In this document: positions 1 to 4,030 of the stretch, piece by piece | Position numbering within the stretch: the stretch's first letter is position 1 | Layout: every line of letters starts with the position of its first letter | NCBI GenBank assembly: GCA_023473255.1 | Contig: JAMCYW010000015.1 | Coordinates: 932-64,931 of the forward strand | Reading direction: 5' to 3' | DNA: 64,000 bases | From: Candidatus Marsarchaeota archaeon | Lineage (GTDB): Archaea; Micrarchaeota; Micrarchaeia; Micrarchaeales; Micrarchaeaceae | The notes under the pieces: generated by a model | Databases searched by the model: none | What the model was told of the DNA's origin: nothing | Seen by the model: the letters and a program-made list of their open reading frames with translations, nothing else | Translations under genes and position numbers: made by a program

Positions 1-2
1 TA

Positions 3-197
3 ATAGGTCTGCAATCAAATAAATCTATAAACAGAACTAAGATAAATTTTATAAAGTTGAAAATTAAAGATTTACTTATTAAAAGAAAGGATGAAAGTAT
101 GTATATATCTGATATTGCAGAAATCTTAAACGTTAGACCTTCTGAAGTTAAATTAGCAGTATCTGAACTAATTGAAGAAGGCTTTCTGAAAGGTTAA
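3..197 (+). CDS. Winged-helix-like DNA-binding protein, C-terminal fragment (5' end outside window)
   Basis: Frame open from the window edge; stop TAA 195..197, 3 nt before the next ATG. C-terminus MYISDIAEILNVRPSEVKLAVSELIEEGFLKG resembles a wHTH recognition helix plus wing. Confidence 0.4.
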   Translation: MGLQSNKSINRTKINFIKLKIKDLLIKRKDESMYISDIAEILNVRPSEVKLAVSELIEEGFLKG

Positions 198-200
198 TTA

Positions 201-626
201 ATGCCCTCTTTTAAAGATACTTTAGAGCCCAATGCCTGTATTTTTGGTGCTGTTATTACTGGAGGCAAAAAAAGGGCTGATAAAAAAGGGCCATTATACT
301 ATAAACTACATAAGTTTGAATGCGGAATTTATAAAGAATGCAACGATAAAAACAAAAACTTTGTTTTAAGTTCGTATGGATATTATAAACCATTAGATGG
401 TACTCTTGGCACTAAACTAATTGGTTCGGTAGGTTTTATAGAATGCGTCGAAGACGGCCAATATTTAGAGTCAAGCAGCAAGAAACACCCGCCTAAAACT
501 GGTACACATTCATCTTATTTTAGTGCAAAAGGAGAACATGTAGTTTGTCATTTTGATGCCAAAATTCAAGATATTCAAGGACCTGTAAAAAGGTATAGTG
601 TAATTAAAGATAAAGTTAAACTATAA
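201..626 (+). CDS. Hypothetical protein (141 aa) upstream of the methyltransferase
   Basis: ORF-track ORF with ATG start 3 nt after the preceding stop; no motif I can name with confidence. Confidence 0.5.
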   Translation: MPSFKDTLEPNACIFGAVITGGKKRADKKGPLYYKLHKFECGIYKECNDKNKNFVLSSYGYYKPLDGTLGTKLIGSVGFIECVEDGQYLESSSKKHPPKTGTHSSYFSAKGEHVVCHFDAKIQDIQGPVKRYSVIKDKVKL

Positions 627-792: not shown

Positions 793-1572
793 ATGGGCAT
801 ATTTTTAAACACAGACAAAATAAAAATAATAAATGAAGATATTCTTAAAACTAGAAAGATAAAAGACGGAACAGTTGATTTGATAATTACCTCACCGCCT
901 TATAATCTAGACATAAAATATAACAGTCATAAAGATAAAATTGCATACCCTGATTATCTAGATTTCAGCAGGAAATGGATTAAAAAGTGCTTTAAACTGC
1001 TTAAAAATGATGGCCGGTTTTGTTTGAATATACCTTTAGACAAGAATAAGGACGGGCAACAAAGTGTGGGTGCTGATTTAACGTGCATCTCAAAAGAAGT
1101 CGGTTTTAAATATCATTCTACAATAATCTGGAATGAAGGTAATATATCGAGAAGAACGGCATGGGGATCTTTTAAAAGTGCATCAGCACCGTATGTAATT
1201 GCTCCTGTTGAACTTATTATTATACTATATAAAAATCAGTGGAAAAAAACAAGTGGTACAAAAATATCTGATATATCTAAAGAGGAATTTATGGCATGGA
1301 CTAACGGGTTATGGTCTTTTAATGGCGAAAATAAAAAACATGCTGGTGGCCATCCAGCAGCGTTTCCTTTAGAACTACCAAAGCGTTGCATAAAATTATT
1401 TAGTTTTGTTGATGATTTAATATTAGATCCGTTTTTAGGTAGTGGGACTACATTAGTAGCTGCTGCACTAAGTCAAAGGAGAGGTATAGGTGTAGAGATA
1501 GATAAAGATTATTGCAGTATAGCAAAAGAAAGACTTAAAAATGAAGCATATCTATTTAATAAAAAATTGTGA
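793..1572 (+). CDS. DNA methyltransferase, beta-class (N4-cytosine or N6-adenine)
   Basis: Motif IV IITSPPYNL near the N-terminus and motif I DPFLGSGTT near the C-terminus give the IV-before-I order of beta-class amino-methyltransferases. SPPY is typical of N4-cytosine enzymes such as M.PvuII. Confidence 0.85.
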   Translation: MGIFLNTDKIKIINEDILKTRKIKDGTVDLIITSPPYNLDIKYNSHKDKIAYPDYLDFSRKWIKKCFKLLKNDGRFCLNIPLDKNKDGQQSVGADLTCISKEVGFKYHSTIIWNEGNISRRTAWGSFKSASAPYVIAPVELIIILYKNQWKKTSGTKISDISKEEFMAWTNGLWSFNGENKKHAGGHPAAFPLELPKRCIKLFSFVDDLILDPFLGSGTTLVAAALSQRRGIGVEIDKDYCSIAKERLKNEAYLFNKKL

Positions 1573-1576
1573 TTTA

Positions 1577-2164
1577 ATGCCAGAAGATAAAGAATCTCAA
1601 ATGGATATCATAATGGAATATTTTAAATCTCATCCCAAAAAAGACATCCCACATCCAGAGGTTGTGGATTGGGTTGTGGCCGAATATAAACACAGAACAG
1701 GTAAAGTTTTTCGTGATCCGGACAGAGCTATAAGAAAGCTTTCGCAAGAAGGATATCTAATAAAAGTTAAGAAAGGTGTGTATAAATATGACCCTTCTGC
1801 AGTAACACATAAGGAACTAGAAGATTTTACTCCTGCACAAAAGAAAGCAATAATGGAAAGGGATGGCTATAGGTGTGTAATATGTGGTAGGGGAATAAAG
1901 GATGGGGTAGAGCTACAAGTAGATCATATTAGACCTAAAGATTTGGGTGGTACGAATTCTATAGATAACGGAGAAACCCTATGTGCGCAACATAATATTC
2001 AGAAAAAAAATTATAAGCAGACGGAATCGGGTAAACGCTATTTTATAAGATTGTACGAAGCTGCAAAAGCAAATGGTGACAAGGAATTGCAGAAATTTTG
2101 TGCGCAGATCCTTGAAGTATATGAAAAAAATGGGGTAAATGGTCACATTGTGTGGAAAAAGTAA
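1577..2164 (+). CDS. HNH endonuclease with N-terminal winged-helix-like domain (candidate restriction enzyme)
   Basis: CVICG...QVDHIRPKDLGGTNSIDNGETLCAQHN is an HNH/beta-beta-alpha-Me motif. ATG 1577 lies 4 nt after the methyltransferase stop; the ORF-track start at 1541 overlaps the methylase. Confidence 0.8.
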   Translation: MPEDKESQMDIIMEYFKSHPKKDIPHPEVVDWVVAEYKHRTGKVFRDPDRAIRKLSQEGYLIKVKKGVYKYDPSAVTHKELEDFTPAQKKAIMERDGYRCVICGRGIKDGVELQVDHIRPKDLGGTNSIDNGETLCAQHNIQKKNYKQTESGKRYFIRLYEAAKANGDKELQKFCAQILEVYEKNGVNGHIVWKK

Positions 2165-2202: not shown

Positions 2203-2646
2203 TTACTTTTTTTTATCAAGTCGTGTTTTATGTAATGCTGCTAATTTTTTGATTAGGTCTAAACCTTTTATTGTCAAAGTTTTTAGCTTATTGTCCGTAT
2301 CTATATCATTAAAGTCTATGCCTATTAAATAGTGTGCGAATTCGTTTCTACCAGAATAAAAATTAGATAAGTCTTTGTATAATTTATTATCTATGTTCGC
2401 TAACATGTTATTTATGGCTATAAGATAAGTGAAACCCAAACGTCCTACATTATCTTCAACTCCCTTCCCTAAGTTATTATTCTCAGAGGTTGAAGATAAA
2501 GATATAAGACTTATGAGATAACTTTCCATAGCACTACTTTCTAAAAATAAGGCAGTTAAATTATTACTTTTATTTATTTCCGTTTCTATTTTTCCGATAA
2601 TCATCTCTGGCGGGCCCAAAACTGCTTTTGGATTGTGTTTAACCAT
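2203..2646 (-). CDS. HEPN-domain protein (Rx4H motif, HepT/DUF86-like signature)
   Basis: C-terminal GRNEFAHYLIGID matches the HEPN Rx4-6H active-site motif and the RNxxxHxY..ID pattern of DUF86/HepT toxins. Very AT-rich gene. Confidence 0.65.
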   Translation of the reverse strand: MVKHNPKAVLGPPEMIIGKIETEINKSNNLTALFLESSAMESYLISLISLSSTSENNNLGKGVEDNVGRLGFTYLIAINNMLANIDNKLYKDLSNFYSGRNEFAHYLIGIDFNDIDTDNKLKTLTIKGLDLIKKLAALHKTRLDKKK

Positions 2647-2823
2647 TTATTTACCCTTATACCTAAATTTGTATCCAGTAATTACTGAAATCGCCCAACC
2701 ATTTTTAACTATAAACAATACTCTTTTTTTAATAGTTGGATCAAAAGCAGTAATGTATTTTGTCATAATATCAAATCTTCTTTTTCTGACTAGTTTTTTA
2801 TTACTTTGTTTTGTTAGCTTCAT
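2647..2823 (-). CDS. Small basic protein, 58 aa (below ORF-track cutoff)
   Basis: Hand translation: MKLTKQSNKKLVRKRRFDIMTKYITAFDPTIKKRVLFIVKNGWAISVITGYKFRYKGK. Its ATG overlaps the integrase TGA (ATGA at 2820..2823) and its TAA directly abuts the HEPN ATG (TAAATG). Confidence 0.45.
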   Translation of the reverse strand: MKLTKQSNKKLVRKRRFDIMTKYITAFDPTIKKRVLFIVKNGWAISVITGYKFRYKGK

Positions 2824-3749
2824 TTTCCCACCCTCTTCTTCAATGAGGCTATCTCGCTCAACGCCATGCTGTCTATTACGTCATAGACCTCCTGCTTGCT
2901 GGTGCTTATGTAAATACTGGTTGTGCTAGGATCAACGTGCCTTGCGAATCTGCTGGTGAGGATGAGATTGCCATTAGCCTGCTTTGCGAACCTAGTTATC
3001 GCATAATGCCTTAGGCTGTGCGTTGTGAGCCTGTGCAGCCTTCTGGGCCTCCTGCCCTGCTGCTCATCGCTTGTGTCATAGACCTCATCCAAGCCCGCAA
3101 GCTCAAGATAGTGCCTGAACCTGTTCCTTACGTAGTTGGGCTCAAGGTAAGGCTCGATCCTGCGGCTCTTTGCCGCATCCCTAAAGAATATGTAGCCTTT
3201 AGCCTGCTCTATCTGGCTGGAATTAGCCTGAGCGAACTCCACTAGCTCCTTGAACAAAGGCAATGGTATCCTTAGGCTGTCCAACAGCCTTGTCTTCTCT
3301 GTCCTTACTGTAAGCTCTCTTGTCTCAAAATCTATGTCTTTTACATTCACTCTTATCGCCTCTCCTATTCTTAGGCCGAGCTGAGCCTGAAAATTGAAAA
3401 GAAGCCTGAATTTAGGGTCGTTTATTGCCCTGAAGAACCTCTGAAGCTGCTCCTCTGTGAAGCCTTTGTTTATGGTTCCATACTTAGGGGTTTTCCTCCT
3501 GCGGAATTTTGTTATGTAATACTGCCTTATCATATGAGTAAGGTCTTCTACTTCGTGCTTTGCCAGATGCGGCAATAGGCTCTGTATGTATCTCTTTGCC
3601 TCTGTGGGTGCAGTTTTGCGTGCAAATTCGTGTTCGGATTCCTGCAAATATCCGAACCCAGCTTTCGCTAACCTTTGGTTATTCTTCATGGCTACCACTC
3701 TTGTACCTATTTTGAGCCTCCGAGCGTGTATCCGAACCCTTAAACTCAT
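2820..3749 (-). CDS. Tyrosine recombinase / integrase
   Basis: LGLRIGEAIRV (box I Arg), HSLRHYAITRFA (HxxR) and RHVDPSTTSIYIS (H...Y) are the catalytic residues of the tyrosine recombinase family. Higher G+C than its neighbours (62 % at 3001..3060 by hand count). Confidence 0.85.
   Translation of the reverse strand: MSLRVRIHARRLKIGTRVVAMKNNQRLAKAGFGYLQESEHEFARKTAPTEAKRYIQSLLPHLAKHEVEDLTHMIRQYYITKFRRRKTPKYGTINKGFTEEQLQRFFRAINDPKFRLLFNFQAQLGLRIGEAIRVNVKDIDFETRELTVRTEKTRLLDSLRIPLPLFKELVEFAQANSSQIEQAKGYIFFRDAAKSRRIEPYLEPNYVRNRFRHYLELAGLDEVYDTSDEQQGRRPRRLHRLTTHSLRHYAITRFAKQANGNLILTSRFARHVDPSTTSIYISTSKQEVYDVIDSMALSEIASLKKRVGK
3632..3657. repeat. Inverted repeat GTTCGGAT-N10-ATCCGAAC inside the integrase 5' coding region
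   Basis: Read directly: 3632..3639 GTTCGGAT and 3650..3657 ATCCGAAC. Confidence 0.6.
3727..3741. repeat. 15-nt direct repeat TGTATCCGAACCCTT, copy 1 (integrase codons 3-7)
   Basis: Identical 15-mer at 3727..3741 and 3911..3925, positions checked against ORF-track frames. Confidence 0.7.
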
Positions 3750-3910
3750 TGAGCTTCCTCTGGCTTAATACTCTGTCTAACTTATCCAATACCTTGTTGA
3801 GTTTCACTATCGCCTTGGCGTGGGCCTCTATCTGCGCTGAGTAGTAGTTGAGCTGGTTCTGGGTGGTGAGCTGGGAGTCTGCTATGCAACTAGAATTAGC
3901 GTATATGCCC

Positions 3911-3925
3911 TGTATCCGAACCCTT
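3911..3925. repeat. 15-nt direct repeat TGTATCCGAACCCTT, copy 2 (between integrase and tRNA-Pro)
   Basis: Identical to 3727..3741; lies 24 nt from the tRNA-Pro 3' end. Confidence 0.7.
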
Positions 3926-3948
3926 TCTTTTCTCCCTGAAACAAAGCA

Positions 3949-4021
3949 TGGGGCTGCCGAGATTTGAACTCGGATAACCGCGACCCGAACGCGGTAGTCT
4001 GCCAGGTTAGCGTACAGCCCC
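3949..4021 (-). tRNA. tRNA-Pro (anticodon CGG), no intron, no encoded CCA
   Basis: Reverse complement GGGGCTG...CCGCG-TTCGGGT-CGCGG...CCGAG-TTCAAAT-CTCGG-CAGCCCC-A. Perfect acceptor, anticodon and T arms; the D stem pairs poorly (about 2 bp). Confidence 0.75.
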
Positions 4022-4030
4022 AGATAAGGA

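Follow-up and report, generated by a model that had tools for sequence, protein, structure and literature searches.

A two-gene cassette between an integrase gene and a restriction pair

The 64,000-nucleotide (nt) stretch of Candidatus Marsarchaeota archaeon DNA analyzed here (the window; C36:932-64931 of a 618-kb assembly that is 83% complete) begins inside a ~4.6-kb element, which sits in a tRNA-Pro(CGG) gene and carries a type II restriction–modification (R-M) pair. In the integrase-proximal part of the element, an AT-rich cassette of two small genes is wedged between the integrase gene (int) and the R-M pair. This cassette is under selection and horizontally mobile, and consists of genes for a 39-residue β-protein and for a minimal HEPN protein whose Rx4H site is intact.

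The int gene, an open reading frame (ORF) of 58 codons and an ORF of 147 codons follow one another on the minus strand (Table 1). A preliminary description of this DNA had arranged them in one string of overlapping and abutting genes, and both junctions are as it described: the int TGA shares ATGA (2820–2823) with the start codon of the 58-codon ORF, and the TAA of that ORF (2647–2649) directly abuts, with zero gap, the ATG (2644–2646) of the 147-codon ORF. The small gene and the HEPN gene are co-directional, with the small gene first and stop and start abutting, which fits the layout of type II toxin–antitoxin (TA) systems. The HNH endonuclease gene of the R-M pair is convergent with the HEPN gene.

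The same description had noted a switch in guanine-plus-cytosine (G+C) content at the int stop. The drop is indeed abrupt, to 25.4% in the small ORF and 29.7% in the HEPN gene (rest of the window, 43%), although the 50–60% ascribed to int was somewhat high: the gene averages 47.4%, with peaks of 52–54% in 200-nt windows. The whole block of int, small, HEPN, HNH and methyltransferase genes recurs at ~87% DNA identity on at least seven other contigs. Taken with the substitution ratios given below, this recurrence indicates that the arrangement is more than chance.

A predicted minimal HEPN ribonuclease

The 147-residue protein contains GRNEFAHYLIGID, in which a HEPN Rx4H motif had been recognized; the conservation of this motif and profile matches of the family bear that assignment out. 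A word-based search with the protein returned close relatives only, all within the same gene block. An exhaustive profile search gathered 66 HEPN-family representatives, 57 of which were aligned (alignment A3) down to 20% identity, and the sole invariant columns are R100, N101 and H105. When the 57 members were scanned singly against Pfam, 16 matched HEPN_RiboL-PSP (best 4e-7), nine Csm6_HEPN, eight HEPN_Cthe2314, five MtlR (weakly) and three DUF4145; matches to LA2681 and Swt1 were also seen. Against the Protein Data Bank (PDB), the family profile matched the HEPN domain of Enterococcus italicus Csm6 (6tug; E value 6.1e-5), aligned on RNxxAH, and the HEPN abortive infection (Abi) protein HepS (E 0.098). 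The AlphaFold2 (AF2) model of the 147-residue protein is all-helical and of moderate quality (mean predicted local distance difference test score (pLDDT) 70). With a ratio of nonsynonymous to synonymous substitution rates (dN/dS) of ~0.2, the gene is under purifying selection. On these sequence comparisons, the product is a HEPN protein with a conserved Rx4H site.

The ‘HepT/DUF86 flavor’ attributed to the motif finds no backing, as the nearest families are the RiboL-PSP, Csm6 and Cthe_2314 HEPNs. The window protein matches neither HepT/DUF86 (PF01934) nor the classical HEPN family (PF05168), neither of these is in the top 25 families of the 57 members, and the PDB profile search, with E up to 10, lists no structure of a HepT protein. 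The lack of a minimal nucleotidyltransferase (MNT) partner, which had been singled out as unusual, stands as an observation: no PF01909/NTP_transf_2 (MNT) gene was found in the 83%-complete assembled genome. It is, however, not an anomaly, because a protein outside the HepT/DUF86 clade would be expected to lack such a partner.

The name ‘predicted nuclease of restriction endonuclease-like (RecB) superfamily’, given by the Joint Genome Institute (JGI) to the 79%-identical homolog P0004 (L004–L009), is unsupported by any search. A PHROGs search of the 147- and 58-residue proteins yielded only phrog_22031 (5.8e-4), a family whose function is not known.

A conserved β-core and a neutral extension in the small protein

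A small gene upstream of the HEPN gene, as first described, is real, but its conserved unit is the C-terminal 39 codons (MTKYITAFDPTIKKRVLFIVKNGWAISVITGYKFRYKGK; 38–45 residues elsewhere) rather than the 58-residue ORF. Homologs are mostly 38–48 residues long and start 2–6 residues before KYI. An AF2 model built with 24 sequences shows four β-strands in residues 20–58 (pLDDT ~95) and a low-confidence helix in the extension that precedes them. Core dN/dS is 0.036 and 0.000 in comparisons with two relatives (dS 0.38–0.93), and in the first 19 codons dN is about equal to dS. By this measure, the 19-residue extension evolves neutrally, and it is specific to the window clade; the added N-terminal residues are without constraint at the protein level, even if translated. 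The ATGA overlap arises from this extension and is not part of the conserved module. In the window clade, the upstream ATG has a Shine–Dalgarno (SD)-like GAGGGTGGG in front of it, whereas M20 has nothing comparable; to judge from these signals, translation may start at the ATGA there.

The small-protein family comprises at least 205 clusters in a collection of 5.8e9 proteins, all named ‘hypothetical’, with sources that include Thermoplasmatales, Woesearchaeota, Pacearchaeota and Micrarchaeota. Profile searches gave no match to a family, a solved structure or a viral model, and Foldseek of the model against PDB and BFVD returned nothing below E 0.1. The protein has no GSxxxG-type nucleotidyltransferase motif or family match. 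No relatives, and hence no virus-borne copies, were found in a scan of a viral contig collection. A relationship to a Cys-less zinc ribbon of the bL33 type was considered and rejected (two short motif matches to a PDB profile at E 0.14; hhalign probability 8.7%). The motifs FDPxxxxRV and TGxxF/Y are common to both proteins, in swapped order and probably by chance.

Recurrence of the pair across archaea

Related loci were gathered with the small-protein alignment. The preliminary description had asked whether homologs of the small ORF recur upstream of HEPN genes, and they do: in 16 independent contexts, an A3-type or RiboL-PSP HEPN gene follows the small gene at a spacing of −8 to +9 nt. The proposed small-protein/HEPN module is thus conserved, and it is absent from Pfam, NCBIfam and PADLOC. 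A3-type HEPN genes are found in the window clade, L043/44, L045, L047, L048 (HEPN decayed), L049, L050, L052/53, L055, L056, L067, L070, L078-81, L082 and L083-85, and in L069, from Thermoplasmatales I-plasma, the gene behind the small one encodes a bona fide PF18735 protein (45 bits against a cut-off of 28.4). The identity of the HEPN partners to the window protein is only 25–50%. The pair occurs in at least four archaeal lineages, being distributed over Micrarchaeota, Woesearchaeota, Thermoplasmatales and other archaea, and has a G+C content of 22–39% in hosts of 28–62%. In a phylum sample of 401 genomes, a strong HEPN match was present in three genomes, all three of which have the small gene, and the small gene was present in five. 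Weaker HEPN-profile matches that lack the small gene (L034–L042; E 1e-11 to 1e-6) were treated as other HEPN families.

Restriction genes of type I, II, IIG or IV lie within 5 kb of the pair in ~10 of the 16 contexts. The neighbors include type I HsdS/HsdR (L070, and L048 by eye), type IIG enzymes of the Eco57I/MmeI kind (L050, L052), an N4/N6 methylase with HNH (window, L055), a C5 methylase (L056, and L069 by eye), two Dam-type methylases with AlwI and Fic (L082) and GmrSD (L078). An AAA_21/AAA_15 ATPase gene accompanies the pair in L049, and only housekeeping genes surround it in L083/84. An integrase gene is directly downstream in L055 and directly upstream in the window, in L067 (tRNA-Glu, int, small, HEPN) and, on a weak integrase match, in L043, so that the pair follows two or three unrelated integrases, L067 being the clear case and L043 the weaker one. 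This variety of settings, from integrative elements through R-M islands to housekeeping regions, fits an autonomous, mobile TA system of type II. In L050, a Hypoth_Ymh (PF09509) protein is encoded between the pair and the type IIG restriction enzyme (L050:2020-2733, minus strand), which gives this island one more uncharacterized gene beside the enzyme.

The junction at the 3′ end of int

The cassette had been described as joined exactly at the 3′ end of int. The composition step is real and matches a recombination junction in the sister genome G177, which has the same int (94% amino-acid identity) and the same methylase/HNH pair (94–97%). Homology resumes ~15 nt after the int stop and takes in the overlapping ATG as well as the initial ~6 codons of the 58-codon ORF. 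Because G177 retains this ATG, the ATGA overlap is a property of the int-side junction and not of the small gene. In G177, a 1.64-kb segment (L040:1706-3349) takes the place of window positions 2436–2804, which hold the small gene together with the 5′ half of the HEPN gene, and a 3′ HEPN remnant is left. The replacement encodes a 327-residue protein and a 162-residue multi-pass membrane protein, neither of which has a family match; together they may be another cassette of two genes, for defense or addiction, at this int-proximal junction.

A different rearrangement is present in L011 (5226–5669, protein P0007), where the N-terminus of int and the C-terminus of the HEPN protein form an in-frame chimera. 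It was made by a deletion across a microhomology of 15 nt, ACGAATyyGCACrC, and it is coincidental that this covers the RNEFAH codons of the HEPN gene and the HEFAR codons of int. An integron-type gene cassette was considered and rejected in view of the position of the pair downstream of int and co-directional with it, the irregular replacement in G177, the microhomology deletion in L011 and the absence of any attC-like structure. The coupling to int is a by-product of the site at which the cassette was joined, and may permit read-through translation in the window clade.

Function of the pair and alternative explanations

We consider it an evenly balanced proposition, on the strength of sequence comparison, that the pair is a mobile, AT-rich, TA- or Abi-like module made up of a toxin and its cognate neutralizer or regulator. 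The HEPN protein would dimerize into an Rx4H RNase, which the co-translated small protein would restrain, whether through direct binding or through control of its expression; once freed, the HEPN protein would cleave cellular or viral RNA (tRNA, rRNA or mRNA) and arrest growth. The pair would in this way act as an addiction or abortive-infection module that backs the adjacent R-M system and stabilizes the element. HEPN toxins with partner genes and R-M linkage have already been described (PMC3710099), and the restriction genes near the pair in most contexts agree with this published association.

Several results weigh against this proposal. The 147-residue protein, taken alone, has no match in Pfam, NCBIfam or PADLOC, and although the best Foldseek match of its model in PDB, 2q00, has a probability of 0.91, its E value is weak (0.47; template-modeling (TM) score 0.51–0.59); 2q00 is listed as a HEPN-T structure by Anantharaman et al. 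2013 (PMC3710099). The small protein has no tail beyond its β-core and, unlike a typical type II antitoxin, is 56–97% identical across contexts in which the HEPN partners are only 25–50% identical. The HEPN gene is decayed or deleted in L011, L048 and G177, so the module is evidently easily lost. Finally, the small gene precedes non-HEPN genes in ~10 other contexts. In L054 the partner is a STAND/AAA ATPase with a methylase next in line, in L057 a methylase, and in the complete genome G042 a primase-like gene of an integrated element; the others are genes of integrative plasmid-like contigs (L060-63), small proteins of the membrane or zinc-ribbon kind in further contexts and, in L086, a 135-residue protein that by eye is PD-(D/E)xK- or Hjc-like and starts 0 nt downstream of the small gene. 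The L086 contig (1–8183) is virus- or plasmid-like, with genes for family B DNA polymerase and for HU-like, HNH, radical SAM and SNF2 proteins. In L071/74, the small gene directly follows tRNA-Val. The idea of a new small antitoxin with a HEPN toxin, advanced in the preliminary description, therefore stands only in part: the pair is conserved, but the non-HEPN partners, together with a conservation of the small protein above that of any partner, argue against a classical, co-evolving, dedicated antitoxin and keep a regulator or adaptor role open.

Such a role is the core of the principal alternative, which we regard as possible but on balance doubtful: the small protein would be a generic nucleic-acid-binding regulator of archaeal mobile-element and defense operons and not a toxin-binding antitoxin, that is, a functional analog of R-M controller proteins or AbrB-like repressors. 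The HEPN protein would then be a stand-alone Abi effector, controlled solely through its expression or by neighboring R-M proteins, as in PrrC-like systems. The strongly basic character of the small protein, its conservation far beyond any partner, the non-HEPN genes directly behind it and its frequent position near attachment-site (att) or int ends (in L071, right after the tRNA) would all suit a regulator, as would the published proposal that R-M subunits restrain R-M-linked HEPNs (PMC3710099). Against it, the start/stop coupling seen in 16 contexts suggests that the two products are made in stoichiometric amounts, searches with the small protein detected no DNA-binding fold or family, and the pair also occurs where no R-M genes are nearby (L083/84). 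A more speculative proposal, which we put forward tentatively, is that the 39-residue protein is a partner-independent switch for archaeal mobile and defense genes that would recognize a conserved target, be it cellular or viral (RNA, ribosome, DNA or polymerase), and gate whichever effector lies behind it, be that the HEPN RNase, the PD-(D/E)xK nuclease, the STAND ATPase or the methylase. This would explain why the small protein is conserved so far above any of its partners. For the pair itself, both readings of the small protein, as a putative neutralizer and as a putative generic regulator, are retained.

Two further explanations are improbable. That int, the small ORF and the HEPN gene are coupled in a single operon for the benefit of the integrase, with the small protein as a directionality or excision factor and the HEPN protein as an accessory, is suggested by the ATGA overlap and the SD-like sequence, both kept in the close clade, and by the integrases directly upstream in two unrelated contexts (L067 and, on a weak match, L043). 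Most pairs, however, have no integrase nearby, the extension that creates the overlap is neutral, the overlapping ATG persists in G177 although the small gene has been replaced there, and int and the cassette differ in their histories, as the composition step shows. At least as improbable is a non-catalytic HEPN protein that binds RNA or a ligand, as MtlR does, or a pair that is decaying cargo without function. The weak MtlR matches of five of the 57 members and the truncated, chimeric or split state of several copies point in this direction, but no residues other than the catalytic R, N and H are invariant throughout the family, and dN/dS is low in both genes (~0.2 in the HEPN gene and at most 0.04 in the small core).

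Comparison with known HEPN systems

Ribo L-PSP-HEPN is a bacterial clade distantly related to AbiD/AbiF (Anantharaman et al. 2013, PMC3710099). RiboL-PSP-HEPN (PF18735) has the same RNxxxH/Rx4H motif as the window protein, is the Pfam family with the largest number of matching A3 members (16 of 57), and includes a bona fide representative behind the same small gene, in L069. By contrast, the window protein does not match the model (gathering threshold 28.4 bits), is ~147 residues long compared with the 191 positions of the model, is archaeal where the known family was described from Bacteria, and has neither an L-PSP fusion nor a ParB neighbor; its dedicated small upstream gene has not been described for the PF18735 family. 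On these sequence grounds, the window protein is best treated as belonging to a sister clade of RiboL-PSP-HEPN.

HepT–MntA (TA type II/VII) is likewise a tight operon of two genes, in which that for the HEPN RNase toxin, minimal and of similar size, comes second; it is common in archaea and on mobile elements. The window protein differs in having no DUF86/HepT match and, as its partner, a 39-residue β-protein without a nucleotidyltransferase motif. The absence of this motif, together with that of NTP_transf_2 from the 83%-complete assembly, excludes neutralization by AMPylation. In RnlA–RnlB and LsoA–LsoB, with Dmd of phage T4, a small protein silences a HEPN RNase, as would putatively be the case here. 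Small neutralizers can act on several toxins, and neutralizers of this kind would fit a small protein that is found with different partners. No sequence or fold relationship of RnlB or Dmd to the window small protein was detected, and the candidate toxin is a bare HEPN domain without the extra domains of RnlA.

PrrC, RloC and other R-M-linked HEPN RNases resemble the window protein in being encoded beside restriction systems, and in the published model an R-M-linked HEPN serves as a suicidal RNase of the second line, which is set free once restriction has been disabled (PMC3710099). The window HEPN protein, unlike PrrC/RloC, has no ABC ATPase domain; its gene is convergent with the R-M genes and not co-transcribed with them, and the pair also occurs away from R-M genes.

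The HEPN clade, its archaeal distribution and the family of 39-residue partners are not in Pfam, NCBIfam, PADLOC or PHROGs, and no description of them was found in the literature searched. Few recognized defense systems are reported from DPANN and other archaea with small genomes (PMC12988326). The present two-gene module is compact and widely transferred, escapes Pfam, NCBIfam and PADLOC, and has restriction systems as neighbors in several archaeal phyla. Its partner type would be new for HEPN proteins, being neither MNT, ParA, RnlB nor CARF, and defines an uncharacterized family of ~40-residue proteins (the 205 or more clusters above) whose extreme conservation suggests that they have a precise molecular target. 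The small size of both genes makes quick genetic and structural tests feasible.

The integrated element and its other genes

The features of the locus are collected in Table 1. Contig positions 1–306 are a direct repeat, 93% identical, of window positions 3662–3967, spanning the last 20 nt of the tRNA gene, the spacer and the first int codons. From this repeat, the element has its far border at C36:~306 and a length of ~4.6 kb, ~625 nt of which extend beyond the start of the window. The repeat also shows that a second, related element lies in tandem, in whose int gene the contig breaks. Another contig, L011, has the same 23-nt att core, matching at 100%, at the far end of a degraded element. 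Further cargo of the element includes a 123-residue protein.

Table 1 Features of the integrated element within the window
Feature	Position	Strand	Evidence and remarks
tRNA-Pro(CGG), integration target	3948..4022	-	ARAGORN
attL core, 23 nt, tRNA 3′ end	3945..3967	.	Repeated at the far end, C36:284-306, outside the window (own-genome search, ungapped comparison)
Tyrosine recombinase (int), 309 residues, 47% G+C	2820..3749	-	Pfam Phage_integrase 1.7e-14; phrog_216 and phrog_1 integrase ~1e-23
Composition step and recombination junction	2805-2850	.	Composition profile; G177 homology resumes at window 2805; just past the int stop
58-residue ORF, basic	2647..2823	-	ATG overlaps int TGA; SD-like GAGGGTGGG upstream, inside int
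Conserved 39-residue basic core, predicted four-strand β mini-protein	2647..2766	-	Alignments; AF2 core pLDDT ~95; dN/dS 0-0.04
147-residue minimal HEPN-domain protein, predicted RNase	2203..2646	-	Motif conservation, profile matches, helical model
Predicted HEPN catalytic motif, codons R100-N-E-F-A-H105	2332..2349	-	Invariant R100, N101, H105; aligns with RNKVAH of Csm6
Winged helix–turn–helix (wHTH)-HNH endonuclease, probable type II restriction enzyme	1541..2164	+	Pfam HNH 4.7e-10; PADLOC REase_II 2.5e-5
N4/N6 DNA methyltransferase of the R-M pair	793..1572	+	Pfam N6_N4_Mtase 3.3e-47; PADLOC MTase_II 6e-94
End of 86-residue wHTH protein (1-197); 141-residue protein, function not known (201-626)	1..626	+	

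A more distant int paralog is present on contig C11 (74% nt identity). A 42-residue ORF (MKLNKVLDKLDRVLSQRKL...; 3679–3807, minus strand) overlaps the start of int in another frame, and the equivalent sequence in L011 is in frame with int. The window int may carry a 1-nt insertion or deletion near its 5′ end, or the position of its true start may be in doubt (3749 or the ATG at 3689).

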